A DNA stretch of 64,000 nt from an uncultured Rickettsiales bacterium (GCA_964558555.1 CAZLEO010000008.1:61-64060); one strand, 5' to 3'. Shown: positions 44,965 to 64,000, numbered from the stretch's first letter. The notes: generated by a model from the letters alone, not told the origin. A program made the numbers and translations.

Positions 44965-44982
44965 AGCGTCCCTGGTTATAAC

Positions 44983-45090: not shown

Positions 45091-45091
45091 A

Positions 45092-45877
45092 TCAGTCGGT
45101 GTCGTCGTCGGGCGGCTCCACCCACTTCACCAGCACGATGCCCAGCTCGTACAGCACCATCAGCGGCAGCCCCAGCGCGATCTGGGTCACCACGTCCGGG
45201 GGCGTGATCAGCGAGGCGAGCACGAACACGCCGATCAGCGCGAACGGTCGCGCCTTGCGCAGCAACGGGGTCCGCACGAACCCGATCTTGCCGAGGAACA
45301 TCATCGCCAGCGGTAGCTCGAACACGACCCCGAAGGCCAGCAGCAGCCGCGTGCTGAACGACAGGTACTCCCCGATGGTCAACATCGGCGCGGTCGTCTC
45401 GTTCCCGTAGCCCAGGAAGAACTTGCACGCCCACGGCAAGACGGCGAAGTAGCACGCGGCCGCGCCCGCGACGAACAGCGCGGTGCTGAACAACACGAAC
45501 GGCACCACGAGCTTGCGTTCCCTGGCGTACAGCCCCGGCGCGACGAACCGCCACCCCTGGTAGAAGAGCACCGGCGAGGCGACGAACACCGAGGCCAGCA
45601 GCGAGACCTTGAGGTAGGTCAGGAACGCCTCGGGGAGCTTGGTGTAGATGAACGTGGAGCCCTCGGGGAAGTAGGGCAGGGCCGGCAGGATCAGCAACTG
45701 GAAGAGCCGCTTGGAGAACAGCAGGCACACGCCCAGGGCCAGGGCATAGGCGATCATCCCGTGGATCATCCGCTTGCGGAGCTCTTCGAGGTGCTCCAGC
45801 AGCGGCATCCTGTATCCGTCGACCTCGTCGAGCAGGCCGTCCGGTCCCCCGCCGTTGGAGGCCGTTGCCGTGCTCAC
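45092..45877 (-). CDS. tatC: Twin-arginine translocase subunit TatC.
   Basis: Six-TM TatC signature (FSKRLFQLLILP...PLAMMFLGKIG). Confidence 0.9.
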   Translation of the reverse strand: MSTATASNGGGPDGLLDEVDGYRMPLLEHLEELRKRMIHGMIAYALALGVCLLFSKRLFQLLILPALPYFPEGSTFIYTKLPEAFLTYLKVSLLASVFVASPVLFYQGWRFVAPGLYARERKLVVPFVLFSTALFVAGAAACYFAVLPWACKFFLGYGNETTAPMLTIGEYLSFSTRLLLAFGVVFELPLAMMFLGKIGFVRTPLLRKARPFALIGVFVLASLITPPDVVTQIALGLPLMVLYELGIVLVKWVEPPDDDTD

Positions 45878-46161
45878 TCGTCTGCCCCAGGCTGCTCGGC
45901 GGATTCAGCGGCGTCGGGCGGTGTCATCGCCGGCGACCGCGACGGTCGGGCCACGAAGCGCCGCTTCTGGCCGGCGGGCCGCCTTGGGCTGTGGTCGGTC
46001 CCCTCGAGGATCAGGTTGCTCTTGAGGTCGTCCGTGACGCGCTTCGCCTCGGACATGGTTCGGAACAGGGTGCGGGCCACCTGCGGGAGCTTGTCGGGGC
46101 CGACGAACACCAGGACCAGCACGAGGATCACGGCGATCTCGGTGAAGCCTATGCTGGGCAT
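45874..46161 (-). CDS. tatA: Twin-arginine translocase TatA/TatB-family protein.
   Basis: GFTEIAVILVLVLVFVGPDKLPQVAR. GGAGG Shine-Dalgarno sequence. 4-nt overlap with tatC. Confidence 0.85.
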   Translation of the reverse strand: MPSIGFTEIAVILVLVLVFVGPDKLPQVARTLFRTMSEAKRVTDDLKSNLILEGTDHSPRRPAGQKRRFVARPSRSPAMTPPDAAESAEQPGADE

Positions 46162-47168
46162 GGCGGAGCCTCCTGATCCTCGCTGTCATCGGATGGTGGG
46201 CGAAGCTGGCAGTGCTGCTCGATGAACTCGACCATGGGGCCGGGATCGTCCAGTGGGAACCTCGGCCAGTCGCCGTCCACGCGCGAGTCCCCGACGACCG
46301 CCACCGTCGTGGACGGGGGGACGTGGGGTGGGGACGGGGCTCCCTCGCGGGTGATCAGGACGACCGGGACTCCTGCGTCCCGGTATCCCTCGATCAAGAC
46401 GATGTCCACGTCTCCGAGGAGGGGGACGAGGTCGGGCAGGGTCGTGTCGGACGGCAGGTCGCCGTGGGCGCCGACGCGGCCGTCGCCGGCGATGACGACC
46501 CGGGTGGAACCCGCCTCCCTGAGGCGGTACGAATCCTTGCCCTCGTGATCGATGTCGAACTCGTGGGCGTCGTGCTTGATCGTCCCCACCCGATACCCGC
46601 GGTCGGCCAGCGCGCGGATGAGGGTTTCGAGGTAGGTCGTCTTGCCGGTGCCCGAGGGCGCGACGAACGAGATCCTGGGCGCCTCGGGGTTGCGGTAGTG
46701 GCCACTGCGACCGCCGGACTTCTCCAGCAGCCGGACCCGGGACAGGACCATGGAGCGGTCCATGGACTTGCACATGTCGTACACCGTCAGGGCGGCCACG
46801 GTCGCGGCGGTGATGGCCTCCATCTCCACGCCGGTCCTGGCGAACGTCCTCGCCGAGGCCTCGATGGCGACCGCCCGGTCCAGCAGCCGGCACCGGACGT
46901 CCAGGTGGTCCAGCAGCAGGGGATGGCACATGGGGATCAGCTCGGCGGTCTTCTTGGCGGCCTGGATGCCGGCGATGCGGGCCGTCTCGAGGACGGGCCC
47001 CTTGGCCATGGCGCCGTCGCGGATGCGACCGATGACCTCGCGCGTGGTGAACACCCTCGCCGCCGCCCGCGCGAACCGCACGGTCTGCTCCTTGCCCGAG
47101 ACGTCCACCATGCGCGCTCGGCCCTGGCGATCGACGTGGGTGAAGTCACCCACTGCGGTCGCCGCCAC
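46149..47168 (-). CDS. moaC: MoaC (cyclic pyranopterin monophosphate synthase accessory protein) fused to MobB (molybdopterin-guanine dinucleotide biosynthesis adaptor GTPase).
   Basis: MoaC motifs THVD..MVDVS, MCHPL, YDMCK. MobB Walker A VAPSGTGKTT. The GTG start at 47168 is approximate. Confidence 0.75.
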   Translation of the reverse strand: MAATAVGDFTHVDRQGRARMVDVSGKEQTVRFARAAARVFTTREVIGRIRDGAMAKGPVLETARIAGIQAAKKTAELIPMCHPLLLDHLDVRCRLLDRAVAIEASARTFARTGVEMEAITAATVAALTVYDMCKSMDRSMVLSRVRLLEKSGGRSGHYRNPEAPRISFVAPSGTGKTTYLETLIRALADRGYRVGTIKHDAHEFDIDHEGKDSYRLREAGSTRVVIAGDGRVGAHGDLPSDTTLPDLVPLLGDVDIVLIEGYRDAGVPVVLITREGAPSPPHVPPSTTVAVVGDSRVDGDWPRFPLDDPGPMVEFIEQHCQLRPPSDDSEDQEAPPCPA

Positions 47169-48354
47169 GGATGAGCTGGAAGTGGACCTCCTCGCCGGCG
47201 CGCAGGGCGTGCTCGCCCGCGGGCAGGGGCACCAGCGCGTTGGCCGCGGCCGTGGCGAAGACATCCGCCGAGCCGCTCCCCGGGCGAGCCGTGACCTCGT
47301 AGTGGTCGTCGCACCACCGCGCGGTCACCAGCGCGAACAGTTCTCGCTTGCTCTGGTACCACGCGTCGTCGCTCAGCACCCCCCGATGTCGTGGGGGCGC
47401 CGGGACGTGGCCCGTCATCTTGGCCACGGCCGCGGAGACGTACACCTGGAACGCCACCACCGTCGCGAGGGGATTGCCGGGCGCGCCGAAGACCAGGGTC
47501 CGGCCCCGCGTGCCGAACCACAGCGGTTTGCCGGGCTTTTGCAGCACCCTGTGGAAGCAGCACTCGACGCCCAGCTCCTCCAGGGTGTCCGGCACGAGAT
47601 CGTACTTGCCCCGCGACACACCTCCGGCGATCACGACCACGTCGCTCGCCAGCGCGTCTTGCAGGGTGGTCCGGAGTACGTCCGGATCGTCCGTCGCGCG
47701 CAGCAAGGTGATCTTGTCGAGCCCCAGGCAGCGCGCCTGCGCGGCCAGGGACACCCCGTTGGAGTCCCGGATCTGATGGGGGCCGGGCTCGCTGTCGATG
47801 GAGACCAGCTCGTCGCCGGTGGTGACCACCGCCAGGGACGGGGTCCGCCGGACGCGCACGAGGGTGCGGCCCTCGGCGGCCAGCGCCGCGATCCCGATGG
47901 GGGTCACGACGGCGCCCTCCGGCAGGATCACCTCACCTTCGGCCGTGGAGCTGCCCCTTCGAGCCACGTGCTGTCCGGCCTTGACCTCGTCTGCGAAGTG
48001 GATCGCGTCTCCGCTGCGCGAGGTCATCTCCACCGGGACCACGGCGTCTGCGCCATCGGGGAGGGGGCCACCAGTCATGACCTCCATGCACGCGCCGGAT
48101 CGCACGTGGGTGATCGCGACCGCTCCGGCCGGGCACTCTCCGATCCGCAGCAGGGTCACCCCGGCCCGGACCTCCGCGGAGCGCACCGCGTACCCGTCCA
48201 TCATCACCTTGTCGAACGCCGGGTGGGAGGACGAGGTGACGAGCGCCTCGCTCAGGACGCGGCCGACCGCACAGTGGATGGGGATGACGATGTTGCCGAG
48301 GGTCTCCGGACAGGCGGCGAGGACCTCCTCGAGGGCTTGTTCGACGGTGATCAT
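47146..48354 (-). CDS. moeA: Molybdopterin molybdenumtransferase MoeA.
   Basis: MoeA N-terminal and MoCF-binding motifs (DGYAV, GGVSRGKYD). Confidence 0.85.
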   Translation of the reverse strand: MITVEQALEEVLAACPETLGNIVIPIHCAVGRVLSEALVTSSSHPAFDKVMMDGYAVRSAEVRAGVTLLRIGECPAGAVAITHVRSGACMEVMTGGPLPDGADAVVPVEMTSRSGDAIHFADEVKAGQHVARRGSSTAEGEVILPEGAVVTPIGIAALAAEGRTLVRVRRTPSLAVVTTGDELVSIDSEPGPHQIRDSNGVSLAAQARCLGLDKITLLRATDDPDVLRTTLQDALASDVVVIAGGVSRGKYDLVPDTLEELGVECCFHRVLQKPGKPLWFGTRGRTLVFGAPGNPLATVVAFQVYVSAAVAKMTGHVPAPPRHRGVLSDDAWYQSKRELFALVTARWCDDHYEVTARPGSGSADVFATAAANALVPLPAGEHALRAGEEVHFQLIRGGDRSG

Positions 48355-49607
48355 GCGTACTCCTCAGACGTGGCCTCGTCGGCCGGCTCCGATGCCGACG
48401 TCTCCGGTAACAGCGGCAGGAGCTTGATTCCCAGGACGAACAGCGCAGCACCCAGCGCCAGGATCCCGCCCGAGACGAGCCACTCGAAGAGGCTGGGGAA
48501 GTACTCGAAGACCGCGCGCTGCGAGTGATAGGCCTCGGCCAGGCCCTCCATCATGGGCTGGGTCAGGGGCGGCACCACGAGGTTCAGCCGCACCGACAGG
48601 AAGGTCACGGCCACCAGGCCGCCCGCGAGGGCCACGGCGCCGGGCTTTCGCGGCAGCCAGACCAGCAGCGCCACCGGGACGACGACGCCCAGCGCCAGGT
48701 GGAAGATCCAGAAGTTCCACCAGTACGGGCCGAACAGCAGGTGATGGAAGATCTCGGATTCGTGGCTGATGCCCTGCCACAGGGGGGTGGAGAACTCGGC
48801 CCACTCCAGCAGGCTGTCGGCCAGCACCAGCACCAGGACCAGCCGGCCGAGCATGACCAGGGTCTCGCGGAACCGGGCACCCCGGTCGGGCCACACGATG
48901 TAGTAGATCGCCGCCAGCCCGCCGCAACCCGAGGCCAGGGCGCCGACCAGGAAGATGATCGGGAACAGGGGCTGGTGCCAGTACATCCGCGCGCCGATGG
49001 TGGCGAACAGCGCTCCCACGCCGCCGTGGAAGGCGATGGCGAGGGGGACGCCGATCATGCCCAGGCGGTGGAGCCAGCGTTCGGCAAAGGGCTCGGGGAT
49101 GCGCGTGACCTGACGGGCCATGAAGCCCGTCAGCCCCCTCTTGTCACGCCAGGGCACCAGCCGGGGGACCAGGGCCAGGAGGTTCTCGACCAGGATCACG
49201 CCGAAGTAGGTGGAGTACAGGAAGATCATCCACGCCATCATCGAGCGGAAGTTGGCGTGGAGCATGACCTGGATGGAGCGGTTCATGTGGCCCAGGTCCA
49301 TGGCGATGGACAGCAGCGCCATGACCAGGGTGACCGCCGCGGTGAACAGGGCCAGCGGCGCCAGGGGCGCCAGCTTCTCCACGCGTCCGACGTAGACCAC
49401 GGACGAGAGGATGAACGAGCCCGCGGACAGGCCGATGAAGTAGATGTAGAAGGCGACCCACAGGCCCCAGGGGATGTAGTTGTTGTAGTCGGCGAGCTGG
49501 TGGCCGGTGCTCAGCCTCAACCAGACCCCCCAGACCCCGGTGACGGCGAGGACCGCCCAGAGCAGGAAGAAGACGATCTTGGCGAGCCGGATCATGGTGC
49601 TCTCCAT
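48351..49607 (-). CDS. NrfD/PsrC-family polytopic membrane anchor subunit (quinol-interacting).
   Basis: ~10 TM helices with the NrfD family pattern. An alternative start at 49595 (MIRLAK) is preceded by GGAGAG. Confidence 0.75.
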   Translation of the reverse strand: MESTMIRLAKIVFFLLWAVLAVTGVWGVWLRLSTGHQLADYNNYIPWGLWVAFYIYFIGLSAGSFILSSVVYVGRVEKLAPLAPLALFTAAVTLVMALLSIAMDLGHMNRSIQVMLHANFRSMMAWMIFLYSTYFGVILVENLLALVPRLVPWRDKRGLTGFMARQVTRIPEPFAERWLHRLGMIGVPLAIAFHGGVGALFATIGARMYWHQPLFPIIFLVGALASGCGGLAAIYYIVWPDRGARFRETLVMLGRLVLVLVLADSLLEWAEFSTPLWQGISHESEIFHHLLFGPYWWNFWIFHLALGVVVPVALLVWLPRKPGAVALAGGLVAVTFLSVRLNLVVPPLTQPMMEGLAEAYHSQRAVFEYFPSLFEWLVSGGILALGAALFVLGIKLLPLLPETSASEPADEATSEEYA

Positions 49608-51827
49608 CTACAGGCGGTCACACGAGCCGCGCTTGCTGGCCAGCAGCTCGGCGAGGGTCCGCCGCGGTTCGGGGTCGGCCGGGTGGACCGTGACGGCTCC
49701 GGATTCGCCGCGCAGCGAACCCACCTCGGCCCCGAACGTCCGCCGCGGATCGGGCTGGACCGCGGCTCCGTCGATGGTCATGCGTCCATCGAACCCCTCG
49801 GTGTGCCCGTACCCCACGGCGGCGGCGACCACACCGGGGCGGACGGCCTCGGTCTCGACCACGTTGATCTCCCGGTGCGCGCGATCCGCCTCCAGCTCGA
49901 CGCGGTGCCCCCGTCGGACCCCGACCTCGGCGAACGTGCTCGGGTGGACCCAGGCCTCGTTCTCGGCCCTCAGGGACGGCGTGGCCCAGTACTGGGCCGT
50001 GGAGTCCACGAAGCCGCCGAAGCTCTCGCGGTAGGTCACCAGCGCCACCCCCTCGATGGGATCCCCGGGGGATCGGACCGCGCTGGGACGGAACGCTTCG
50101 GGTTTGGGCGGCGTGACAGGGCTGCGGCGGGCTTCGAGCCAGCCCCGGTGCTGGAGCCTGGCCGGGTTCGGGGTCGCGGCGATGGCCGCTTCCAGGACCG
50201 CGTGACTGTCCAGCGTCTCACCGGCGAGCGCGGCGAGGGTCTCGAGCAGGCCCTCGAGCCCACGGCTCCAGGGCGCCTCCAGCCCGGCCTCGCTCATCAC
50301 CGAGCCGACCGTCGGCTGGACCAGCGAGATGCCGTCCCAGCGCTCGACGAGGCCGAACCGCTCGTGCTCGGTCACGTCCGGGACGATCCAGTCGGCCAGG
50401 GCGGCCACGGGGTTCATGACCGTCGTGACGACCACGAGGTTGCGCACGCGGGCGGGGTCGGCCAGGGCCTCGAGCAGCTCGGCGTGGTGGGGGCCGTCGG
50501 TGATCCCTCCGTCCCCCACGACGATCAGGGTCTCGAGGGTCTCCCTGGCGGCCAGGCGTTGTTGCAGCGCGAGGTCGGCACGCTCCCCGAGGGGAACGGG
50601 CGACAGCGCCGGCTCCATGGCCCCACCGACGCCCGTGGCCCCGGACAGGACCGCCAGCCGCAGGATGGCCTCGCAGACCTCGGCGCCGTCGGGGCGCTCC
50701 CCCACGCCGCCGCCCACCCGCACGGTCAGACCATCACCCATCTCCGCGAGCCGGTCGGCGGTGCGCCGGACGACCATCTCACCCAGCCCCGACCGCGGCT
50801 CTAGGTCCTTCCACGGCCGCGCGGCGATCTGGTCGAGCCACTCGTCGGGCGGCTCGACGACACCGTCGTCCACCCAGGCCCTGAGCAGCATCCACGCCAG
50901 GGCCATGTCGCCGCCTGGGCGCACGGGCAGCCAGACGTCGGCCATCCCGGCGACCTCGGACAGCCGCGGATCGACCACGACCAGGGCGCCCGTCCCGTGG
51001 CGCTCACGCAGCCGGAGCAGCTCCCGCGAGTCCCCGATGGGATCCACACCGGACGCGATCGCGTCGGCCCCCCAGATCAACGCCCCCCGCGCGCGCTCGA
51101 GGCGCGGCTGCAGCGTCCAGCCGGGCTGTCCCATCATGGCGTCGCTGGCCGCGTTCACCCACGGGTTGGGCGTACCCAGGAGGACCTCGGCCCCCTCCAG
51201 CGTCTGCTGGAAGGCCTCCAGGACCGGGCGCCGGTCCAGCTGGCGCGGATCCACCGCGACGACGGTCCCGGATGGAGCGGTATCGGCGATCAGGTTTGCC
51301 GCTGCCGCGGCGGCGTCGCCGGGCTGGAGGGTCTGCCAGGCCCCCTCGCCGCGCTCGCCGAGCCTGGAGAGCGGCCGCACGATGCGGAAGGGGTCGTGGG
51401 TGTTCTGCAGCCGCGCCTGGCCGCGGGCGCAGCAGGCTCCTCGCAGGGTCGCGGCGTCGGCGGCCGTGACCGGGAGGGGGCCGCCGTGGACCCTCGGGGA
51501 CCAAGGGTTGCCGTCGATCTTGGCCAGCACCCCACCTTCGGTGGCCACCCGCACGGGGCACGCGCCGTGGCACCCCAGACAGGTGGACAGGACGATGGAG
51601 CCGGGATCATCGAGGGGGTACTCGGCGCGGAAGATCGTGTCCGCGTCGGCAAAGTCGGGACGGCCGGGGCCGATGGCCAGCCCCGCGCGGGAGGCGGCCA
51701 GGGTTCCCAGCGCGCACCCGCCCAGCAGGGCGGTGAGACGACAGAACTGGCGGCGGTCCACGCCCTTTCGGGTGTCCCGGTCGGATCGGACCTCCGGATC
51801 AGCTCCTGTAGTAGACCGTCGGCTCAT
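49608..51827 (-). CDS. Molybdopterin (Mo-bisPGD) oxidoreductase catalytic subunit, Psr/Phs/Ttr-like, Tat-exported.
   Basis: Twin-arginine signal DRRQFCRLTALLGGCALG. N-terminal [4Fe-4S] motif CLGCHGACP. ~740 aa. Confidence 0.8.
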   Translation of the reverse strand: MSRRSTTGADPEVRSDRDTRKGVDRRQFCRLTALLGGCALGTLAASRAGLAIGPGRPDFADADTIFRAEYPLDDPGSIVLSTCLGCHGACPVRVATEGGVLAKIDGNPWSPRVHGGPLPVTAADAATLRGACCARGQARLQNTHDPFRIVRPLSRLGERGEGAWQTLQPGDAAAAAANLIADTAPSGTVVAVDPRQLDRRPVLEAFQQTLEGAEVLLGTPNPWVNAASDAMMGQPGWTLQPRLERARGALIWGADAIASGVDPIGDSRELLRLRERHGTGALVVVDPRLSEVAGMADVWLPVRPGGDMALAWMLLRAWVDDGVVEPPDEWLDQIAARPWKDLEPRSGLGEMVVRRTADRLAEMGDGLTVRVGGGVGERPDGAEVCEAILRLAVLSGATGVGGAMEPALSPVPLGERADLALQQRLAARETLETLIVVGDGGITDGPHHAELLEALADPARVRNLVVVTTVMNPVAALADWIVPDVTEHERFGLVERWDGISLVQPTVGSVMSEAGLEAPWSRGLEGLLETLAALAGETLDSHAVLEAAIAATPNPARLQHRGWLEARRSPVTPPKPEAFRPSAVRSPGDPIEGVALVTYRESFGGFVDSTAQYWATPSLRAENEAWVHPSTFAEVGVRRGHRVELEADRAHREINVVETEAVRPGVVAAAVGYGHTEGFDGRMTIDGAAVQPDPRRTFGAEVGSLRGESGAVTVHPADPEPRRTLAELLASKRGSCDRL

Positions 51828-53072: not shown

Positions 53073-53182
53073 ATGCCTCCGTGGGGGAGCACCACGGCGA
53101 GGAATCGCACCAGGAACATCAGCCAGTAGCCCAGCACCGCGCCGACCACGAGCATCCCTGTGCCGATGATCCAGCGCATCAT
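53066..53182 (-). CDS. Candidate 38-aa single-TM protein (MMRWIIGTGMLVVGAVLGYWLMFLVRFLAVVLPHGGMW).
   Basis: GAGGA Shine-Dalgarno sequence. Overlaps both flanking genes by 4-7 nt in the operon. Confidence 0.35.
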   Translation of the reverse strand: MMRWIIGTGMLVVGAVLGYWLMFLVRFLAVVLPHGGMW

Positions 53183-56732: not shown

Positions 56733-57034
56733 GGCAGCACTCCGTTGGAGCCGTGGCAGTCGGAGCAGCTGTCGTAGCCCTCCGTCCGCACCAGGGTCTC
56801 CAGTTCCAGGTAGTCCACGCCCGTCGTGCACTCGCGCTGGTGGACCACCGCGAGGACGTGGCAGGCCGCGCAGTCGTCCCGGCCCCAGCCATCGGCGTGC
56901 TCCGAAGGGGTCACGACGAGCCCCTCCTCCGACTGGCCGATGGGGACCTCCAGGTCCTCGCACGGCGTCAGAGAGGCGCACGACAGCCCGAGGACGGCGA
57001 GCCCCAGGGAGACCAGGACGTGGCGCGCTACCAT
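56729..57034 (-). CDS. Diheme c-type cytochrome lipoprotein (101 aa).
   Basis: Lipobox LGLAVLGLSC. CAACH and CSDCH. GGAAGG Shine-Dalgarno sequence. Confidence 0.7.
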   Translation of the reverse strand: MVARHVLVSLGLAVLGLSCASLTPCEDLEVPIGQSEEGLVVTPSEHADGWGRDDCAACHVLAVVHQRECTTGVDYLELETLVRTEGYDSCSDCHGSNGVLP

Positions 57035-57633
57035 GGCGACCTTCCGTTGCTGTGACAGCGCGTACACGAGTCGCCGGAGTGGCACGTGACGCAGGACTGG
57101 GGATCGAAGCGGGCCTCGATGCCGTGGAGCGCGCCCCACCCCGGCGGGTGATTCGAGCGGGTCAGGGCGCCGCGGTTCTCGTGGCAGGTGAGGCAGCGGC
57201 CGGTGTCGTGGCATTCGTGACAGCCAGGGCGGATCATCCTGACCTCGCTGCCGTGGAACCTGGCCCAGCCCGGCCCGTGGGAGTCGGGGGAGAACCCCTC
57301 GCCGTGACAGATCTGGCACCCCTCGGGACCCACGGCGGCGCGGGTGTCCGTGGCCTTGTGACAGTAGTGGCAGCTGGCAGGGGGCGGCGACAGGAACGCG
57401 TCGTCCAGGACCTCGGCGTCCCCGGGTTCCTCCAGGCGCGTCCCGACCAGGTGACAGGCGACGCACGCGACGTTCTGCTCGGTGAAGGTCTCGACGTGCT
57501 CCTCGTGCAGGAACTCGTCGAAGATCAGCTGCACCTCCTCGGACGTGAGGGACTCCTCGGCCCCACCCCCGACCATCGTGGCCGAGGCGCCCAGCAGGAT
57601 CACCACCAGCGGCGTCGCGACGATGGCCCTCAC
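57028..57633 (-). CDS. Heptaheme c-type cytochrome.
   Basis: Seven CxxCH motifs. GTG start after AAGGGAGGGG. Signal peptide. Confidence 0.75.
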   Translation of the reverse strand: MRAIVATPLVVILLGASATMVGGGAEESLTSEEVQLIFDEFLHEEHVETFTEQNVACVACHLVGTRLEEPGDAEVLDDAFLSPPPASCHYCHKATDTRAAVGPEGCQICHGEGFSPDSHGPGWARFHGSEVRMIRPGCHECHDTGRCLTCHENRGALTRSNHPPGWGALHGIEARFDPQSCVTCHSGDSCTRCHSNGRSPW

Positions 57634-59009
57634 AGCGCCCCCCTCCCTTGGCCCACGCGGGCCTGCAAGGCCACGCCCGCACGCCACCAGGGGGACAGCA
57701 GACGGTCCGTGCCCACGGCGGTGCGGAAGACGATGCCCAGTTGACCCCACTTGGGCCGCACGGGAAGGACCAGGCTCCCCTGGAACCGGGCCTCCCCGAC
57801 GGTGGCCTGGGTCCCATCCAGGCCCTGGAAGCGATAGATCCCGGCCTCACCCCAGAGGTGGACCGGGCCGACCTGGTGGCGCATCCCCACGCCGCCGCCG
57901 GCGTACCACGATGCGCCCACGGACGTGCCGGTGCCGTAGAGGCCCAGTCCGGACCAGTCGAAGGCCAGCTTTGCGGTGCCGCCGACCGCGACTCCCGTCT
58001 CCACACCCGGGGGGATCTCGGAGTCCTCGGCCACGACCTCGTAGCCCTCGGTCTGCTGCCCGATGGTGGGGCCGCCCTCGACACGGAGGCTCAGGTCGTT
58101 GGCGGGCCGGAGCTCGAACGAGACCTCGGCCACGCCGTAGTCCTCGGGGCGGAGGGTCTCCACGATCGAGGCGGCGGACCAGGGCACCGTGATGGGGGGC
58201 AGGCCGTAGTAGCGCCCGCCCAGCCTCAGCCTCGCGCGCGTCCCCAGCGGGAGCGAGGACTGGACGCGCGCCGCGAATCCAACCCCCCCGGAGTCCTCGA
58301 CCCCCTCGGTCTCGCCGTCGATGCCGAGCTCGCCCAGCGCCAGCAGGGACACCCCCCGGCTGCTGCGCAGGGTCGTGCTCAGGTGGATGCGGTGGGTCAG
58401 GTTCACCGGCGTGCGGCGAATGTCGTACCCGGCGGCGAGGCCGAACGCCCCCGGTGAGATGCGGAACTGCGCGCCGCCGCCCACGTCTCCGCCGATGTCG
58501 ATCGCCTCCGGGTGGCCCACGCGGCCGCCCCACAGCGACACCCCCACCGGATCGTCCATGCCGAGGTTCAGCAGGACGCCGTCCACGCGGGTCAGGCCGA
58601 GGGTCCCGGCGTGGACGTACCGGCCGGCCGTGATCGACACCTTGGGGCCGTTGTACTGCACGGCCAGGCGCTGGATGCTCGCCTCGTCCCAGGCGTACAC
58701 GTCGGTGGTGGCCAGGGGGATCAGCAGCTGGCCGTCGGCGATCACCCGGAAACGCGGTGAGAAGCCTGCGGTGAGCGACAGCCCATGGCGCATCCGGGCC
58801 CAGGTGTCGCCGTTGGACTCCGGCAGGACCTCGATGGACGAATGGCCCTCGGCCTGGCTCTGGCTCGCAAATGTACCCGCGCTGGCCAAAGAGGCAAAAG
58901 CCAGCAGGGGGACCAGCACCAGGCCGAAGGCCCACCGTCCGGAGCGAGTGGGCGCGCTCCGGAGCAGAGTTCGCCGTGGTTGCAAGAGGCGCACGGCCCT
59001 ACTCCTCAT
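57630..59009 (-). CDS. Porin-like outer-membrane beta-barrel protein (MtrB/PioB/OmbB-like context).
   Basis: Signal peptide. Glycine/aromatic-rich alternating beta-strand pattern throughout. No cofactor motifs. Flanked on both sides by cytochromes. Confidence 0.6.
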   Translation of the reverse strand: MRSRAVRLLQPRRTLLRSAPTRSGRWAFGLVLVPLLAFASLASAGTFASQSQAEGHSSIEVLPESNGDTWARMRHGLSLTAGFSPRFRVIADGQLLIPLATTDVYAWDEASIQRLAVQYNGPKVSITAGRYVHAGTLGLTRVDGVLLNLGMDDPVGVSLWGGRVGHPEAIDIGGDVGGGAQFRISPGAFGLAAGYDIRRTPVNLTHRIHLSTTLRSSRGVSLLALGELGIDGETEGVEDSGGVGFAARVQSSLPLGTRARLRLGGRYYGLPPITVPWSAASIVETLRPEDYGVAEVSFELRPANDLSLRVEGGPTIGQQTEGYEVVAEDSEIPPGVETGVAVGGTAKLAFDWSGLGLYGTGTSVGASWYAGGGVGMRHQVGPVHLWGEAGIYRFQGLDGTQATVGEARFQGSLVLPVRPKWGQLGIVFRTAVGTDRLLSPWWRAGVALQARVGQGRGAL

Positions 59010-59277
59010 CCTCGAGGTGGACTGGCGGGTAGGCGTGGCACAGGGAGCAGTGGTAGACCGACGTACCCTCGATCCGTCCGTCCTCGTCCTCGGCGTGGCA
59101 CTCGAAGCAGGCGGTGTCGTCCTCCTCGACGTCCTCCATGTGCAGGCGCGAGTACCCTTCGGGATGGGGGAATCCTCCCGATCCGTACCCCTCGGTGACG
59201 TCCACGGGCACGCCGCAGCTCCCCACGGCCAGCCCGAGCGCGCACGCCAGCAGGGTCCTGGAAATCCAGCGAGTCAT
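58999..59277 (-). CDS. Diheme c-type cytochrome lipoprotein.
   Basis: MTRWISRTLLACALGLAVGSC lipobox. CFECH and CSLCH. GGAG Shine-Dalgarno sequence. ATGA overlap with the upstream gene. Confidence 0.7.
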   Translation of the reverse strand: MTRWISRTLLACALGLAVGSCGVPVDVTEGYGSGGFPHPEGYSRLHMEDVEEDDTACFECHAEDEDGRIEGTSVYHCSLCHAYPPVHLEDEE

Positions 59278-59837
59278 CGATGCGCTCCACGCGGTGGCGG
59301 GGTGCGCCGGACCAGCAACCACAGGATCAGCAGATACGACGGCCAGGGCGCCGAGACATCGCCGGCGAGCGAGTACACGCAGCTGGCGGGAGCTTCGTCC
59401 TCGCCGGCGGAGTCGTCGTCGTCGGAGATGTCCGCGCACTCGTAGACCGGCAGCTCTTCGAGGACACTGAGATCATCCCCCGGGTTGCTGGTCTCCTCGA
59501 ACGCGGCGTCCTGGCCGTAGGTCCATTCGCCGCAGGGATCGCCGAGCTCCTCGCCGTTGGTCTGACCGTCGTCGTCGGAGTCGAGTGCGTACACCGCGGG
59601 CCAGATGGGTTTCGGGTTGACGTAGTCGTCGTAGGTCAGCGCGACGTCGACCCCGAACCAGGTGAGGTTCAGGGCCCTGTCGATGTCGATGTGACAGGCG
59701 CCGCAGTCGTGCGTGGCGCCGTTGGGGATCTCGGTGCTGAACAGGTTCCGCGCCTCGGCCGGGGCGGCCGGGAGCAGCGCGAGGAGGCACACCACCGCCA
59801 TGGCACGGGGTGCGGCACATGGCGGTCTGGTGCTCAT
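59274..59837 (-). CDS. Monoheme c-type cytochrome with a C-terminal TM anchor.
   Basis: Signal MAVVCLLALLPAAPAEA. Single CGACH. C-terminal hydrophobic helix. Acidic region. Confidence 0.6.
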   Translation of the reverse strand: MSTRPPCAAPRAMAVVCLLALLPAAPAEARNLFSTEIPNGATHDCGACHIDIDRALNLTWFGVDVALTYDDYVNPKPIWPAVYALDSDDDGQTNGEELGDPCGEWTYGQDAAFEETSNPGDDLSVLEELPVYECADISDDDDSAGEDEAPASCVYSLAGDVSAPWPSYLLILWLLVRRTPPPRGAHR

Positions 59838-60496
59838 GTGCCGCTGGCCCCGTGCCGCGCACCCTCTTCCTCGAGCAAGACCTCGGTGAGGCGCGCCAGC
59901 TCGGCGTAGAAGGGTCGCCGTGCCGCTTGCCGCACCTTCCGACAGAATGGGGGAACCCAGCGAGAGAGATCCTGTCGGTAGAGGTAGCGTTCGGAGTTGA
60001 GGATGCGCTCGGCTCGTTCGTCGTCTCCGTCCTGTAGTGCCCCGGCCTGGCTCTCGAGGAGCTTGGCGTACAGCTCCAGCTCGTGGGCGACGTGGTCCGG
60101 GATTCCGTCGTAGCTCTGTCCGCCGAACTCCAGGCCGTGGTCCTTGGCGAACCGACGGATGCGGCTCGTGGTATTGCCCCAGAGGTTGCCCTGCCTGGTG
60201 TCGTCCGGGTGGTGGACCGATCCGTAGGGCGGCACGTGCTTTCCCGGCCCCAGGAAGACCCTGGAGTACTCCCGGCGGATGGCCGTGAGCTCGTCCGCGT
60301 CCGCCAGGGCCTCCTGCTCGAGGTCGAAGCCCTCGCGCTGCAGCAGCCCCAGCGTTCCCGAGCTCGCCAGCTTGTCGCCCAGCTCCTCGGTGACCTCGCT
60401 GCGGTACAGCGTCGCCATGAGTCGGTACAGGGCCGCCCGCTCGATGAGAGCCAGGGGTTGTGTCGTCGTGCTGTCGGACATGTCACAGCTCTCCAT
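59834..60496 (-). CDS. TorD/DmsD-family redox-enzyme maturation chaperone (REMP).
   Basis: TorD-like helical protein (REYSRVFLGP...PPYGSVHH motif region). Confidence 0.7.
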   Translation of the reverse strand: MESCDMSDSTTTQPLALIERAALYRLMATLYRSEVTEELGDKLASSGTLGLLQREGFDLEQEALADADELTAIRREYSRVFLGPGKHVPPYGSVHHPDDTRQGNLWGNTTSRIRRFAKDHGLEFGGQSYDGIPDHVAHELELYAKLLESQAGALQDGDDERAERILNSERYLYRQDLSRWVPPFCRKVRQAARRPFYAELARLTEVLLEEEGARHGASGT

Positions 60497-60552
60497 TGCC
60501 GGCCCGGAGGCCGGGCCGGCTCGAGTTCGGGGTTGAGGTGCCTGTCGCTGCG

Positions 60553-63429
60553 TCAGGCGGGCGAAACGCTGACCACCGTGTCCATGAACCGCAGCCCGCC
60601 GCCGATGGGGTCACCAGCGTTGGGCATGATCCAGTTGGGCCGGAAGCCCTTGCTGTTCCACCAGATCTCGTCCTTGTCCACGTCGTTGGCGCCGTGGTCG
60701 GTGTAGTCCGCGTCGTCGCCCAGCGGGTGGGTCTCCTCACCCGCCGTGGCGTAGCGTCCGTAGGCCCAGTGATCGAAGTGGTGGGACACGGCGATCACCT
60801 TGGGGTGGATACCCTGGACGACCTTGGCGGTGACCGTGATGGAGGACCGGGCGGTCCCTTCGGTCACGATCATGTCCTTGTCGTTGATCAGCTCCGCGGT
60901 GCGCGTGATGGTGATCTCGTCGCCGTCGGCGATCCCCAGGGACGCGGCCGTGGACGCGTTGATCCAGGCACCCTCGGAGTGATCGAGCTCGCTGAGGTAC
61001 TTGCAGTTCTGGCTGCGCGAGTGGATCTGCGTGGCCAGCTTGAACGTGGTCAGGATGAGCTCGTCGGCGCCCATCTCGTCGTGCTCGGGGATGCGCATCC
61101 ACACGGGCAGACCCGGGTAGTGGCCCATCTCCATGATCACGGACTGGAGCTCGAAGAAGCCCGACTTGTTGATCTTGTCGGGCGCGAACCCCTCGTACAC
61201 CGTCCCCGAGTCGTCGATCACCTGGCCGACGTAGTGCTTGTACGACTTGGAGGTGTTGCGGTAGCCGTCGTTGAACTCGGCCTTGGTGCACTCCCAGACG
61301 ATGCCCTCCTCGTCCATGAAGACGTAGTCGTCCTCGTCCTCGTCGTCGACGGTCTCGGGATCGGTCAGGTCCACGTCCACGACGTTGTCGTACTCGCCGT
61401 ACTTGGGTTCGGCGGACGGGTCGTGCCACGCCCCTTCGGCGGTCATGAAATCGAACCCGTTGGCGTATCCGGCGCTCGTGCCGGCGTTGTCCACGTCCTC
61501 GGTGTCGTTGCACGCGGCCTCGACGAAGTTCTCCATGCTGCCCACGGCGGCCACGTCCTCGAGGGGATCGTCGCCACCTTCGCTGAGGCGGCCGGCCAGG
61601 TCGATGAGCACGTCCTGCATGTTGCGGACCTCGCCCAGCGGCGAGATCACCGGCTGGCGGATGTAGAACTCGGGGACCATGTCGTACGAGACCATGTCCT
61701 CCCAGTCCCAGCGCTCGAGGTACGTGGCGTCCGGCAGGATCAGGTCGGCGTACATGGCGGCCTCGGTGTACGCGACGTCGGACACCACGATGTACGGGAT
61801 CAGGCTCTCGTCCTTGAGGACGTCGATGTTGTCCTGCATGTCGCCGTTGGCGTAGGCCGGGGTGTAGCAGTACACCAGGTACACCATCGGGCGATCCTCG
61901 GGCGCGGCCGCGCGGATCTCCTTGAGCACCTGGTGACTGGCGTGATGCGACGGGGCCACGTAGGCGTCGTCGTTCTGGACCGACAGCCCGGTGGTGTCGT
62001 TGCTGGGCTTGGGGAAGGTCGAGGAGTACGACCAGCTGGCGCCCACGCCGTGGACGCGGCCGCCTTCGCGGTCGATGTTCCCACAGAGCCCCTCGAGCAT
62101 CTGCACGGCGTTCTCGGTCACGGTGCCGTTGAAGTGCATCACGGCGCCGCGGTAGCTGATGATGGTGCTGCCGGGGCTGCCGGCGGCGTAGGCCTCGGCG
62201 ACCATCTCGATGTCCGCCGCGGACACACCGCTGAGGCCCTCGGCCCACGCGGGCGTGAAGCCACCTGCGGGCTGGTCGTCGGGATCCCAGTAGTCGATCA
62301 TGTCGGGATCGGCGTCGCGGCAGGCCGAGATGTAGTCGGCCGGGTTCTCGAGCAGGTCACGCAGGCGCTCGAACTTGCTGTCGAAGCCCAGCGGATCGAC
62401 GTTCGACCAGTCGTTGATGAAGTCGATGCCCGCCTGGGGCGCCAGGTCGTTGGTGACGATGTGGTAGGTCATCGCCAGGACGACCGCCAGATCGGTGCCG
62501 GGCTTGATCGGCAGCCACTTGGTGGACTTGGCCGCGGTCTCGGAGAGCCGGACGTCGAAGGTGTAGGTCTCCGCGCCCTCGTGGATAGCCTCGCTGAGTC
62601 GCGTGGCGAACGGGATGTGGCTGGTGTGCGCGGCCAGCGGATTGGAGCCGAAGTTGACGATGACGCTGGAGTTGATCACGTCGTTGACGTCGTAGTGCTT
62701 GCCCCAGACCAGCTCCTGGCTCGTCCACTTGTTGGACTCGCAGATGGCGGTGTGCCCCGCATAGGACTTGGAGCCGAACGCGGGCAGGAAGTAGGACTTG
62801 GCCAGCTTGGACGACGAGCCCTTCATGCGTCCGTAATGGAACATGAAGTACTTGGGATCGGCGGCGCGGGCCTCGGCCATCTTCGCGGTCAGCTCGGTGA
62901 GGGCGTCGTCCCAGGAGATGCGCTCCCACTGGTGGTCGCCGCGAGCGGTCCCGGCGACGCGCCGCATGGGGAACAGCAGGCGATCGGGGTCGTAGACCTG
63001 ACCGATGCCACCCTGCCCCTTGGCGCAGATCTTCCCTCGGGTCTTCTGCGCCCTGGGGTTGCCCTCGATCTTGGCCAGGCGGCCGTCCTCGACGTAGCAG
63101 ATGATCCCGTCGCGGCAGACGCACTGCCAGCAAGCGCTGGGGATGGCGGTGCGCTCCTCGCCGGTGACGGGCGAGTAGTCTGTCATGGTGCCGTCGACCG
63201 TATCGCCGACGATCACGTCGTCGAACTGGACCGTGTCGTCCGGGCACTCCTCGGTCACGACATCGTCGTCATCGACGTCATCGGCGCATGCCGCGATCGC
63301 GGCGCCCACGCCGAACACCAGCGCGCTCTTGGCGCCCAGAGAGGTCAGCAACTCCCGACGCGACGACGCGCGCTCGGTCTCGGCACCCTCGGCGGTCAGC
63401 GCATCATTCTTCTTTGATTCGTCCTTCAT
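60553..63429 (-). CDS. Second molybdopterin oxidoreductase catalytic subunit (958 aa; TtrA/PsrA-like), Tat-exported.
   Basis: Twin-arginine signal SRRELLTSLGAKSALVFGVGAAIAACA. Cys motif CWQCVCRDGIIC. Mo-bisPGD domain architecture. AAGGAG Shine-Dalgarno sequence. Confidence 0.8.
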   Translation of the reverse strand: MKDESKKNDALTAEGAETERASSRRELLTSLGAKSALVFGVGAAIAACADDVDDDDVVTEECPDDTVQFDDVIVGDTVDGTMTDYSPVTGEERTAIPSACWQCVCRDGIICYVEDGRLAKIEGNPRAQKTRGKICAKGQGGIGQVYDPDRLLFPMRRVAGTARGDHQWERISWDDALTELTAKMAEARAADPKYFMFHYGRMKGSSSKLAKSYFLPAFGSKSYAGHTAICESNKWTSQELVWGKHYDVNDVINSSVIVNFGSNPLAAHTSHIPFATRLSEAIHEGAETYTFDVRLSETAAKSTKWLPIKPGTDLAVVLAMTYHIVTNDLAPQAGIDFINDWSNVDPLGFDSKFERLRDLLENPADYISACRDADPDMIDYWDPDDQPAGGFTPAWAEGLSGVSAADIEMVAEAYAAGSPGSTIISYRGAVMHFNGTVTENAVQMLEGLCGNIDREGGRVHGVGASWSYSSTFPKPSNDTTGLSVQNDDAYVAPSHHASHQVLKEIRAAAPEDRPMVYLVYCYTPAYANGDMQDNIDVLKDESLIPYIVVSDVAYTEAAMYADLILPDATYLERWDWEDMVSYDMVPEFYIRQPVISPLGEVRNMQDVLIDLAGRLSEGGDDPLEDVAAVGSMENFVEAACNDTEDVDNAGTSAGYANGFDFMTAEGAWHDPSAEPKYGEYDNVVDVDLTDPETVDDEDEDDYVFMDEEGIVWECTKAEFNDGYRNTSKSYKHYVGQVIDDSGTVYEGFAPDKINKSGFFELQSVIMEMGHYPGLPVWMRIPEHDEMGADELILTTFKLATQIHSRSQNCKYLSELDHSEGAWINASTAASLGIADGDEITITRTAELINDKDMIVTEGTARSSITVTAKVVQGIHPKVIAVSHHFDHWAYGRYATAGEETHPLGDDADYTDHGANDVDKDEIWWNSKGFRPNWIMPNAGDPIGGGLRFMDTVVSVSPA

Positions 63430-63442
63430 GATGCTTCTCCTT

Positions 63443-64000
63443 TCAGATGCTGGGGACGTCGAGCTGGCGACCTGCGTCGCCGCGGATGTCGTAGCCGGTG
63501 TCGTAGACGTCGGAGTCGAGGTCGATGTAGTACAGCGCCGGGTCGGTGCCCGAGCCGCCGAGCAACACGGTGACCCGGTCGCCCGCGGCCTCGATCTGCT
63601 GGCTGATCTCGCTGTTGGGATCATTGAGGTTGCCCGTGACGCGCGCGTTGGCCGGACAGGTGTTCACGCACGAGGGCACGATCCCGTTGGCCAGGCGGTG
63701 GATGCAGCTGTTGCACTTGTCCACGGGGTGGGGATCGCTGATGGACAGTCCGAACTCGGCGGGGTCCCCGCCGGCGGTCTTGGAGTAGTCGAGGAAGCGG
63801 GCGCCGTAGGGGCAGTCCGCGACGCAGTACCCGCAGCCGACGCAGCGGTCCTGGTCCACGTGGACCAGGCCGTCGGGGCGCTGGTAGGTGGCGCGAGCCC
63901 AGAACTGGGCCGTGCCCCCGCCGGGGAACTCGAGGTTGGCCATGATCGGCGTGGTCGGGCAGCGCTCGAGGCAGACCGGCTCACGGCAGTGGTTGCACCG
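63443..64000 (-). CDS. 4Fe-4S iron-sulfur subunit partner of the second molybdoenzyme. Partial: the N-terminus lies beyond the window edge.
   Basis: CVGCGYCVADCP and CNSCIHRL...CPANA clusters. Translating upstream of the internal Met gives CNHCREPVCLERCP, so the gene continues past 64000. Confidence 0.75.
   Translation of the reverse strand, partial: RCNHCREPVCLERCPTTPIMANLEFPGGGTAQFWARATYQRPDGLVHVDQDRCVGCGYCVADCPYGARFLDYSKTAGGDPAEFGLSISDPHPVDKCNSCIHRLANGIVPSCVNTCPANARVTGNLNDPNSEISQQIEAAGDRVTVLLGGSGTDPALYYIDLDSDVYDTGYDIRGDAGRQLDVPSI

Follow-up and report, generated by a model that had tools for sequence, protein, structure and literature searches.

Introduction

DmsEFABGH of Shewanella oneidensis, an extracellular dimethyl sulfoxide (DMSO) and iodate reductase, receives its electrons from CymA, a quinol-oxidizing protein of the inner membrane, and uses DmsE together with the barrel DmsF to feed DmsAB at the outer face (PMC11302344). 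Here we describe a 19-gene array that can be compared with this system and with several others. It occupies positions 45092 to 64000, on the minus strand, of a 64,000-nucleotide (nt) stretch deposited as DNA of an uncultured Rickettsiales bacterium (GCA_964558555.1, CAZLEO010000008.1:61-64060), hereafter the window, and encodes two homologs of molybdenum-bis(pyranopterin guanine dinucleotide) (Mo-bisPGD) enzymes, MoA1 and MoA2, their iron-sulfur (FeS) partners FeS1 and FeS2, seven c-type cytochromes and a predicted outer-membrane beta-barrel. We propose, at about even confidence, that this is an arsenic-oxyanion-regulated respiratory operon in which c-type cytochromes replace the NrfD membrane anchor and link MoA2–FeS2 to the quinones and the cell surface.

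DmsEFABGH and the array both combine, in one operon, a Mo-bisPGD catalytic subunit and its FeS partner with a chaperone of the TorD/DmsD type, an outer-membrane barrel and a multiheme cytochrome of the periplasm (PMC11302344, PMC9048795). It is a precedent for joining a molybdoenzyme to a porin–cytochrome module, to be set beside the remark, in an earlier reading of the window from its sequence alone (the sequence-only reading), that no described system of exactly this composition was known to its author. The two nevertheless differ in several respects. The Shewanella enzyme is of the DmsA type, whereas MoA2 is Cys-ligated and ArrA/PsrA-like; one decaheme cytochrome there contrasts with seven cytochromes and 41 hemes here, including a putative surface protein that combines an NHL propeller with 15 hemes; and where Shewanella relies on CymA, the window carries a putative quinol dehydrogenase of the Qrc/ACIII type within the operon. 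Gene order also differs, and regulation here appears to involve sigma54 and a sensor protein (X), kinase (S) and regulator (R), together XSR.

Like the respiratory arsenate reductase ArrAB and the anaerobic arsenite oxidase ArxAB (Arr and Arx), MoA2 has Cys as its molybdenum ligand and is accompanied by an FeS partner and a TorD-like chaperone; at six of the seven active-site positions of ArrA it has matching residues, with Met at the column of Tyr166. Its genes, like theirs, come with a histidine kinase, a sigma54 regulator and an RpoN-type promoter, together with a periplasmic sensor of the AioX/ArrX type whose pocket is complete (PMC5908839, PMC6683785). Unlike them, MoA2 has YGRMK in place of the (R/K)GRY and GRGWG signatures, and its genes are ordered B-A-D (B-C-A-D in the wider family) rather than arrAB or arxB2ABCD. 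We know of no porin–cytochrome link for either Arr or Arx.

Qrc and alternative complex III (ACIII, ActABCDEF) couple periplasmic cytochromes to the quinone pool, and their anchored penta- or hexaheme, Mo-bisPGD-like, four-cluster FeS and NrfD-type subunits all have counterparts in the operon (PMC6303296). The Mo-like subunits of QrcABCD and ACIII are cofactor-less (PMC6303296, PMC10100899). In the window the order is heme-FeS-Mo-NrfD, MoA1 keeps the cysteines of the FS0 cluster, and the operon has no ActD, ActE or ActF genes and no further membrane subunits. MtrCAB and the Geobacter Pcc/Ext systems likewise place a barrel gene beside periplasmic and lipoprotein multiheme cytochromes and share the MtrC/MtrF II/IV signature, but the window differs from MtrCAB/Pcc in having its own rare barrel family, an NHL propeller at the N terminus of the large cytochrome and a molybdoenzyme in the unit. 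From Psr/Phs it departs in that no NrfD gene adjoins MoA2 and in the order B-A-D rather than A-B-C.

Uet of Candidatus Tenderia and ptdABCDEFG of Alphaproteobacteria from oxygen-deficient zones (ODZ) also pair a barrel with multiheme cytochromes in uncultured marine bacteria (10.1101/2022.05.06.490989; 10.1101/2023.11.21.568154). The NHL propeller proteins of Uet are separate from its cytochromes, whereas here the propeller is fused to the 15-heme cytochrome, and both Uet and ptd lack a Mo-bisPGD enzyme, an XSR sensor and a Qrc-like module. ACIII-like clusters in metagenome-assembled genomes (MAGs) from the Oslofjord (PMC10732223) and Psr-like clusters in Deferribacter (PMC13186404) are other, different systems. 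The combination of genes reported here is not described in the literature we searched, a search that left out one study of arsenic respiration in ODZ. In parts the operon is functionally like DmsEFAB, Mtr/Pcc, Arr/Arx-XSR and Qrc/ACIII, and by sequence-based membership tests it falls outside every one of them.

Organization of the operon

The 19 genes form an unbroken run on the minus strand from 64000 to 45092, essentially where the sequence-only reading had placed them, in a window with a G+C content of about 70%. Gene starts were picked using signal peptides and comparison with gene calls in relatives, and Pfam and NCBIfam searches confirmed the gene identities on the earlier list. Gene calls and domain searches thus agree with the earlier description of a single-strand array with 41 hemes, a barrel, two Mo-bisPGD homologs and genes for molybdenum cofactor (Moco) synthesis and twin-arginine translocation (Tat). 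In the order of transcription, the genes (all minus strand; aa, amino acids) are:

63443–64000, minus: FeS2, four-cluster ferredoxin subunit, partner of MoA2 and first gene, truncated at the window end (Pfam Fer4_11; NCBIfam DsrO/TtrB-like partial matches)
60553–63429, minus: MoA2, predicted catalytic Mo-bisPGD subunit, 958 aa (Pfam PF00384, PF01568, PF04879)
59834–60496, minus: TorD/DmsD-family protein, putative maturation chaperone for MoA2 (Pfam Nitrate_red_del, 75.2 bits)
59274–59837, minus: monoheme Temptin_C-domain protein with signal peptide (Pfam PF24784, 43.8 bits)
58999–59277, minus: diheme lipoprotein di2, 92 aa (two CxxCH; ATGA overlap with the monoheme gene)
57630–59009, minus: predicted outer-membrane beta-barrel, 459 aa, about 22 strands (structure model)
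57028–57633, minus: heptaheme cytochrome c with signal peptide (seven CxxCH; GTGA overlap with the barrel gene)
56729–57034, minus: diheme lipoprotein di1, 101 aa (two CxxCH; lipobox kept in orthologs)
55740–56732, minus: octaheme cytochrome c with signal peptide (eight CxxCH; Pfam Cytochrome_C7, Paired_CXXCH)
53179–55743, minus: NHL beta-propeller fused to a 15-heme cytochrome, 854 aa (fifteen CxxCH; Pfam NHL 56.7 bits, Paired_CXXCH 100 bits)
53066–53182, minus: 38-aa peptide with a single transmembrane segment (conserved small gene)
52497–53072, minus: membrane-anchored hexaheme cytochrome c (six CxxCH, N-terminal transmembrane segment)
51799–52500, minus: FeS1, four-cluster ferredoxin subunit (NCBIfam matches below cut-offs; ATGA overlap with the hexaheme gene)
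49608–51827, minus: MoA1, divergent Mo-bisPGD homolog, 739 aa (Tat twin-arginine (RR) motif, FS0 cysteines; Pfam Molybdopterin below threshold)
48351–49607, minus: NrfD/PsrC-family integral membrane subunit (Pfam NrfD, 135.4 bits)
47146–48354, minus: MoeA, molybdopterin molybdotransferase, accessory (Pfam MoeA_N, MoCF_biosynth, MoeA_C)
46149–47153, minus: MoaC-MobB fusion, Moco biosynthesis, accessory (Pfam MoaC 172.9, MobB 122.4 bits)
45874–46161, minus: TatA/TatB-family protein, 95 aa, accessory (Pfam TatA_B_E 38 bits; NCBIfam TatB 46.5 bits, below cut-off)
45092–45877, minus: TatC, accessory, last gene of the overlapping array (Pfam TatC 228 bits; TIGR00945 213.9 bits, above cut-off)

Per cytochrome, again in the order of transcription, the CxxCH motifs add up as 1+2+7+2+8+15+6 = 41; one more, in MoA1, belongs to the FS0 cluster motif (CLGCHGAC) and is not a heme site.

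Neighboring genes share 4-nt ATGA or GTGA overlaps at 11 of 18 junctions (12 if the hexaheme gene starts at GTG 53069). Five further overlaps measure 7 nt (heptaheme/di1), 8 nt (moeA/moaC-mobB), 11 nt (di2/barrel), 13 nt (moaC-mobB/tatA) and 29 nt (FeS1/MoA1); the MoA1 and NrfD genes abut, and the only two intergenic gaps are 13 nt (FeS2/MoA2) and 56 nt (MoA2/TorD). A scan of 44500–64000 found no internal sigma70-like or sigma54-like promoters above chance. Of terminator-like sites it found a single weak one, within the barrel gene; shuffled sequences contain more. From this layout we infer co-transcription of the array, as the sequence-only reading had thought probable from its abutting and overlapping genes; the overlaps and the lack of internal promoters add to that case and leave it a prediction. 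The operon begins about 370 nt past the window end. An identical MoA2 is encoded on metagenome contigs of the Joint Genome Institute (JGI), and the source contig among them, L001, reaches 10 kb past the window end. A profile scan with MoA2 across 185,579 species genomes yielded 80 loci, which were annotated with the window's proteins.

MoA2 resembles arsenate reductase at its active site

Its sequence clearly marks MoA2 as a Tat-exported, Cys-ligated enzyme of an uncharacterized Mo-bisPGD family within the Psr/Arr group. It contains the Pfam domains Molybdopterin (105.8 bits), Fe4S4 and Molydop_binding, has the FS0 cysteines, and combines, at its N terminus, a Tat signal with a lipobox (AIAAC) and an acidic linker, in that order. 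FeS2, whose full 308 aa are encoded on L001, is built alike: it has a Tat-like RR motif, and its signal peptide is followed by a Cys (AVGC) and an acidic linker. In both proteins a Cys directly after the Tat signal, together with the linker, suggests lipid anchoring; L005, L006 and L008 lack the lipobox.

The closest solved relatives of MoA2, Thermus PsrA (149 bits) and Shewanella ArrA (146 bits), are effectively tied. The sequence-only reading had singled out the molybdenum ligand as a residue worth inspecting, and it proves to be Cys230, aligned with PsrA Cys173 and ArrA Cys193 (ArrA numbering is chain index + 40). Around it, MoA2 R201/H226/T227/C230/K234/Y246 align with ArrA R165/H189/S190/C193/K198/Y210, or six of the seven active-site residues, R165 counted among them and with Thr for Ser. 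The residues of MoA2 at the seven columns are invariant or nearly so across 118 full-length family members. PsrA has His/Gly, Ser and Val at the columns where the family has Arg201, His226 and Thr227. In ArrA itself the substrate-contact residues are H189, S190, K198, Y166 and Y210 (PMC10654088).

MoA2 scored 62 bits against TtrA (cut-off 1750) and 202 against dmsA_ynfE (cut-off 777.7), and the test of the FeS2-type subunit against DmsB gave 70.8 bits (cut-off 214). Wider-family members reached 176–209 bits against the ArrA model, and PhsA was the best curated match for MoA2 and its relatives (252–394 bits); like MoA2, these members attained no curated equivalog. The earlier claim that the window holds a Tat-exported Mo-bisPGD enzyme inside a porin–cytochrome-type module holds for MoA2, which has no NrfD anchor of its own.

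An AioXSR/ArrXSR-type sensory system precedes the operon

Past the window end, and so out of sight of the sequence-only reading, L001 carries a perfect sigma54 element, TGGCACAGCTCTTGC (TGGCAC-N5-TTGC). It stands about 40 nt ahead of ATG 9094, the probable start of FeS2, which has a GGAGG ribosome-binding site. The element adjoins a divergent NtrC-type response regulator, on whose far side are genes for a HAMP-HisKA-HATPase kinase and for X, a PhnD-like binding protein with a membrane anchor. A sigma54-type −24/−12 element stands at the same position in L003, L035, L006, L008, L009 and L020. The X protein matches its closest solved relative, the arsenate sensor ArrX of Chrysiogenes (PDB 6X6B), with 159.7 bits, AioX with about 118, and PtxB and PhnD with at most 62.

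The AioX/ArxX/ArrX subfamily has a pocket of Tyr88, Cys106, Tyr131, Ser161, Ser163, His192 and Asp210, with Cys106 absent from PhnD; each sensor and its cognate molybdoenzyme recognize the same compound, the sensor as ligand and the enzyme as substrate, and AioR works from an RpoN promoter (PMC5908839). In binding tests AioX and ArxX took up none of the other oxyanions, tetrathionate and thiosulfate among them, and ArrX accepted arsenate and phosphate alone (PMC5908839). The X protein of the window lineage retains the complete set of seven pocket residues, as do 19 of the 22 X proteins that adjoin MoA2-family genes. The X proteins of L033, L042 and L043, from Nitrospinota and Marinimicrobia MAGs, have Gly for the pocket Cys and Lys for Asp210.

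Among the loci compared, 18 have recognizable genes for X, S and R together and 27 for at least one of the three; XSR directly precedes the operon in L089. A cultured organism, Azoarcus sp. KH32C, also has XSR: its plasmid pAZKH carries a 34%-identical MoA2 homolog in the arrangement R-S-X / FeS-NrfD-Mo-TorD (NC_020548.1 59931-65091), immediately adjoined by arsA and an ACR3 arsenite pump, and the homolog is annotated only as a molybdopterin-dependent oxidoreductase. L070, L042 and L059 likewise have ACR3 no more than 10 kb away. Taken together, the operon appears from these sequences to be under XSR and sigma54 control by arsenic oxyanions, and the sensor and gene neighborhood make a family-wide circumstantial case that is consistent with, and not proof of, an arsenic oxyanion substrate. 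Arsenic, which the sequence-only reading had listed among several candidate substrates, is now favored on the active-site residues, the XSR sensor and the ACR3 and arsA neighbors.

A presumed barrel–cytochrome conduit

The 57630–59009 product, which had been taken for a porin-like barrel, models as a large outer-membrane barrel of about 22 strands, bearing out that assignment at the level of predicted structure. It has no Pfam or NCBIfam match and no detectable sequence relation to MtrB/DmsF. The family is rare (87 representatives), and every homolog whose contig was examined lies in this operon context. On the strength of the model and its fold neighbors, we presume the barrel to be the sheath of a conduit.

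In all relatives the heptaheme gene adjoins the barrel gene, making its product a candidate periplasmic or barrel-inserted wire. In Pfam and NCBIfam, di1 and di2 have no match, and the hepta- and hexaheme proteins have weak generic cytochrome matches only. The di2 lipobox is present in seven of seven orthologs examined, and that of di1 is likewise kept. Against the MtrC/MtrF II/IV domain, the octaheme protein gives a weak match (26.2 bits) and the NHL 15-heme protein 47.8 bits (cut-off 30); the latter has lipoboxes in L004, L006 and L008 and is a candidate outer-face component. Scores for the DmsE/MtrA-family model (72.9, cut-off 192) and for OmcA/MtrC (38, cut-off 209) remained below threshold.

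The monoheme protein ends in a tail like a sorting tag (Cys-x-Tyr-Ser, a hydrophobic stretch, then Arg) that is conserved in orthologs, where it resembles MYXO-CTERM or GlyGly-CTERM sorting signals. Orthologous tails reach 19.9 bits against MYXO-CTERM (cut-off 20) and 17.1 against GC_trans_RRR (cut-off 15.85); the sorting-tag models do not detect the window's own tail. The protein is probably anchored at the cell surface, as judged from this tail.

A probable Qrc/ACIII-like quinone module

The hexaheme gene holds the same position in all relatives, including those without the FeS1-MoA1-NrfD trio, and hexaheme-FeS1-MoA1-NrfD is kept as a block in L003, L035, L083 and L085. By analogy, this block is probably a coupler to the quinone pool with MoA1 as a cofactor-less scaffold. 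We base this reading on its Qrc/ACIII-like subunit list, on the divergent ligand column of MoA1, and on sister lineages in which the trio is absent or a cytochrome b is found.

The MoA1 family is small, at about 27 clusters, past which similarity falls sharply to ordinary Psr-like proteins. In an alignment of 19 members the family keeps the Tat RR pair and the four FS0 cysteines, and MoA1 retains the ArrA-like segments WGADPxASG and VVDPRLS. At the column of the ligand Cys, the sequence alignment to ArrA shows variable residues and the profile–profile alignment to the MoA2 family hydrophobic ones; there is no conserved Cys, Sec or Asp, and conservation is confined to a Ser/Thr four residues upstream. 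The Pfam Molybdopterin score is 20.7 bits (cut-off 24), and the solved relatives found by sequence, PsrA, ArrA, ethylbenzene dehydrogenase (EbdA) and acetylene hydratase, are all weak. We think it rather likely, from these sequence features, that MoA1 is non-catalytic. The sequence-only reading had counted two catalytic units; the ligand column, the sub-threshold Pfam match, the Qrc/ACIII-like gene set and the absence of the trio in sister lineages leave MoA2 as the one we retain.

MoA1 was also considered as a QrcB/ActB ortholog and rejected, with a QrcB score of 55 (cut-off 440) and no Act or Qrc chain among its PDB sequence matches; the likeness to Qrc/ACIII is one of subunit composition only. 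The partners score similarly: FeS1 matches DsrO (176), ArrB (159) and QrcC (147 bits, cut-off 400), all below cut-off in NCBIfam, and NrfD has sub-cut-off matches to DsrP and to QrcD (58, cut-off 570).

Between the NHL 15-heme and hexaheme genes lies the 38-aa peptide, conserved in every relative with an invariant C-terminal motif, HGGW or HGGMW. It is called as a gene of 37–38 aa in L083 (8634–8750), L085 (8691–8807) and L089 (15807–15920), shows 66–76% tblastn identity in L003 and L035, and has the same C-terminal motif in L006 and L008. The peptide has no match in Pfam or NCBIfam and may be an unrecognized small subunit of the hexaheme/quinone module.

Conservation across relatives

A 15-gene core from FeS2 to NrfD is found in the same order in L035 (MoA2 92% identical), L003 (86%), L083 and L084 (78%), and L085 and L086 (68%). 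The first 12 genes, FeS2 to hexaheme, without FeS1-MoA1-NrfD, occur in L004, L006 and L008 (MoA2 62–71%), and L089 has the same 12-gene order, again without the trio, with a barrel only 34% identical. On the 201-kb contig of P0017, the 12-gene core is followed after the hexaheme gene by a cytochrome b of the Ni_hydr_CYTB type (weak Pfam match). Recurrence of this order in independent metagenome assemblies, at MoA2 identities of 62–92% and in L089 as well, upholds the earlier view of a dedicated, conserved system rather than a chance assembly.

Genes past NrfD are variable. The window has moeA, moaC-mobB, tatA and tatC at this position, L083 a radical-SAM gene and a MoeA-MobB fusion, and L085 unrelated genes. 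The conserved unit is one of 12–15 genes, and the Moco and Tat genes are lineage-variable; that they are integral to the system, as had been supposed, is not borne out, with other Moco genes in L083 and none in L085.

At 43–50% identity, the wider MoA2 family comprises loci with FeS, usually NrfD, Mo and TorD genes and without cytochromes, in MAGs labelled Nitrospinota, Marinimicrobia, Planctomycetota, Omnitrophota, Aminicenantes, and Alpha- and Gammaproteobacteria. In most family members NrfD stands between the FeS and Mo genes, and it is missing in the clade with cytochromes and barrel; with few exceptions, a TorD gene comes after that of the Mo subunit in related loci. Since the wider family usually has NrfD and no cytochromes, the version with cytochromes and barrel is a derived one that has lost its NrfD anchor.

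The source organism is probably a marine relative of the Myxococcota, with MYXO-CTERM-like tags and MopE-motif lipoproteins as Myxococcota-type traits; related MAGs carry conflicting automatic labels. The MopE 'putative metal-binding motif' occurs in two large secreted proteins or lipoproteins of the window (22235–23587, minus strand; 32614–35811, plus strand), both with long poly-Asp linkers after the lipobox Cys, and acidic linkers are likewise found in MoA2, FeS2 and the monoheme protein. These linkers look like a trait of the organism rather than of the operon.

Proposed mechanism and alternatives

In the arrangement we favor, quinol would be oxidized at NrfD and, in the manner of ACIII or a reversed Qrc, electrons would travel via FeS1 to the anchored hexaheme cytochrome, MoA1 serving as a scaffold that probably lacks the cofactor and the 38-aa peptide perhaps as a small subunit at this step. 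The hexaheme would pass electrons to the periplasmic hepta- and octaheme cytochromes, and these in turn to MoA2–FeS2, which, once MoA2 had been matured by TorD, would reduce arsenate or a close analog. A branch would run through the 22-strand barrel to the diheme lipoproteins, the NHL 15-heme protein and the tagged monoheme protein at the surface, where the targets could be mineral-bound arsenate, an Fe/Mn-oxide carrier, or MoA2–FeS2 itself placed at the surface as in DmsEFAB. As to purpose, we speculate that the system respires particle-sorbed arsenate along with its Fe/Mn-oxide carrier. Subunit contacts, protein locations, substrate and electron direction are what we infer from the evidence above. 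Of the earlier proposal that electrons move between the molybdoenzyme and the surface or an insoluble substrate, the conduit part gains from the barrel model and from the position of MoA2 in a porin–cytochrome-type module.

Several observations weigh against this reading. At the column of ArrA Y166, MoA2 has Met202, and Met is found there in the whole family. No protein of the operon reaches a curated equivalog cut-off in NCBIfam: the best match of MoA2 is PhsA (252, cut-off 694), and its score against ArrA, NF041714, is 168.6 (cut-off 1600), so that the arsenic assignment rests on residue matches and gene neighborhood. The pocket residues of the sensor do not decide ligand specificity (PMC5908839), and the XSR system could belong to a new clade sensing another oxyanion; loss of the pocket Cys in the X proteins of L033, L042 and L043 hints that part of the MoA2 family senses, and perhaps uses, such an oxyanion. 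On L001 the sensor kinase gene is frameshifted, relative to L035 and L003, by a 1-nt insertion, gtcttcAgatcc, inside HATPase_c (7100–7420). The same insertion occurs in L002, and with two assemblies from different JGI samples the frameshift may be a real inactivating mutation in the population and not an assembly error. The Tat and lipobox signals, all that bears on the location of MoA2–FeS2, do not fix its side of the outer membrane. As regards direction, enzymes of the Arr/Arx type run both ways and the XSR family regulates the oxidases Aio and Arx as well as Arr (PMC5908839, PMC6683785); the sole hint of flow towards reduction is that the X protein is nearer ArrX than AioX.

This two-way behavior, and the control of oxidases by XSR, leave room for the chief rival reading, in which MoA2–FeS2 works as an Arx-like anaerobic oxidase of arsenite or another reduced oxyanion, with electrons leaving through the barrel to Mn(IV)/Fe(III) oxides or entering the quinone pool by Qrc-like reduction. 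Qrc, the nearest analog by subunit list, reduces menaquinone from cytochrome c (PMC6303296), L006 (MAG OFTM289) comes from the Oslofjord subsea tunnel set, whose biofilms oxidize Fe and Mn (PMC10732223), and the Cys to which arsenite bonds in the AioX pocket is kept here. The scores of the X protein (159.7 for ArrX, 118 for AioX, with no ArxX structure for comparison) nevertheless point to the arsenate-binding sensor, and a periplasmic oxidase that passes electrons straight to an external acceptor would conserve little energy. Moreover, the As(V)/As(III) potential is too high for easy menaquinone reduction, and on balance we consider such an oxidase somewhat unlikely. A sulfur-compound reductase of the Psr/Phs/Ttr type, served by a conduit for insoluble sulfur and an XSR system sensing a sulfur oxyanion, would account for PhsA as the best curated match of MoA2 and its relatives, for the automatic JGI names (thiosulfate/polysulfide reductase), for Thermus PsrA as top solved structure at a score tied with ArrA, and for the FeS-NrfD-Mo order of the wider family, which is that of ttrBCA. 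Yet all PhsA scores lie far under the cut-off, TtrA reaches just 62 bits, PsrA differs at the columns (Arg201, His226, Thr227) where the family is ArrA-like, and the ACR3 and arsA neighbors are arsenic genes. The sensor, too, is of the AioX/ArrX subfamily with a Cys-containing pocket, and neither AioX nor ArxX bound tetrathionate or thiosulfate (PMC5908839), making this reading, in our judgment, quite improbable.

Two further alternatives concern the make-up of the operon. MoA1-FeS1-NrfD might be a complete, active Psr-like quinol:substrate oxidoreductase alongside MoA2. The Tat signal, the four FS0 cysteines, the GADP and DPRLS motifs and the Ser/Thr near the ligand column keep an active MoA1 conceivable, which counts against the scaffold role we assign to it, and Moco biosynthesis genes directly follow NrfD in both the window and L083. 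We nonetheless hold a second enzyme to be unlikely: the ligand column is variable or hydrophobic in the 19 MoA1-family members and the Pfam score is sub-threshold, the trio is translationally coupled to the hexaheme gene as in Qrc and ACIII, other lineages have the same 12 upstream genes without the trio or with a cytochrome b after the hexaheme gene, and QrcB and ActB offer a precedent for cofactor-less homologs (PMC6303296, PMC10100899). The operon might, lastly, be a mere juxtaposition of independent modules, namely a Mo enzyme, a metal-reducing porin–cytochrome complex, an ACIII-like complex and housekeeping Moco and Tat genes, as the variable Moco/Tat genes and the exchange of the quinone module between lineages might suggest. 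This is very improbable given an FeS2-to-hexaheme order that stays uninterrupted down to 34% barrel identity, XSR genes included, the 4-nt overlaps at most junctions with no internal promoters and fewer terminator-like sites than in shuffles, and a rare barrel family whose homologs on examined contigs are all in this context. In addition, the MoA2 clade lacks the NrfD anchor of its relatives and therefore needs another redox partner.

Implications

We tentatively suggest, while thinking it more doubtful than the operon model itself, that the MoA2 family is a fourth family of bioenergetic arsenic-oxyanion oxidoreductases beside Aio, Arx and Arr, here rewired onto an outer-membrane conduit. If so, arsenic respiration would here be tied to extracellular electron transfer for the first time, the cell either reducing mineral-bound arsenate or oxidizing arsenite with the help of solid Mn/Fe oxides. 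The family would also be a large, unannotated group of probable arsenic or metalloid respiratory enzymes in oxygen-poor oceans that the Arr, Arx and Aio models miss. Arsenic-based respiration in such waters has been proposed from marker genes alone, Saunders et al. 2019 reportedly dealt with it in ODZ, and the family may already have been glimpsed there as 'arr-like' sequences.

The system would further be a second independent case, after DmsEFAB, of a molybdoenzyme for a soluble substrate on an outer-membrane conduit, with a quinone module of its own and a new barrel family, which would suggest that this design is a general evolutionary solution. The pairing of the 12-gene core with a Qrc/ACIII-like complex, and with a cytochrome b in one sister lineage, would amount to a natural experiment in module exchange. 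The sensor, the enzyme and the barrel–cytochrome pair are small enough for direct expression, and the Azoarcus sp. KH32C cluster offers a tractable cultured system for the function of the MoA2 family.

Flanking genes

Upstream on L001, a second, perfect sigma54 element (TGGCACCTTCCTTGC, 3558–3572) lies about 70 nt upstream of an extra tatA (3639–3797), near which are moaA (radical SAM and Mob_synth_C), a MOSC-domain gene and a gene for a 621-aa Rhomboid-domain protein. With the extra tatA, moaA and the MOSC gene on this side, Moco/Tat accessory genes therefore flank the system on both sides. Downstream of tatC, at a distance of 127 nt, the window encodes a secreted 1033-aa protein (41863–44964, minus strand) with a weak match to a 5'-nucleotidase C-terminal domain (20.5 bits), whose position is not conserved in L083 or L085. 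Farther downstream, at 24429–28435 on the minus strand, a small biosynthetic cluster encodes a type III polyketide synthase, which has chalcone/stilbene synthase domains, together with an enoyl-CoA hydratase and a radical SAM enzyme that binds B12.

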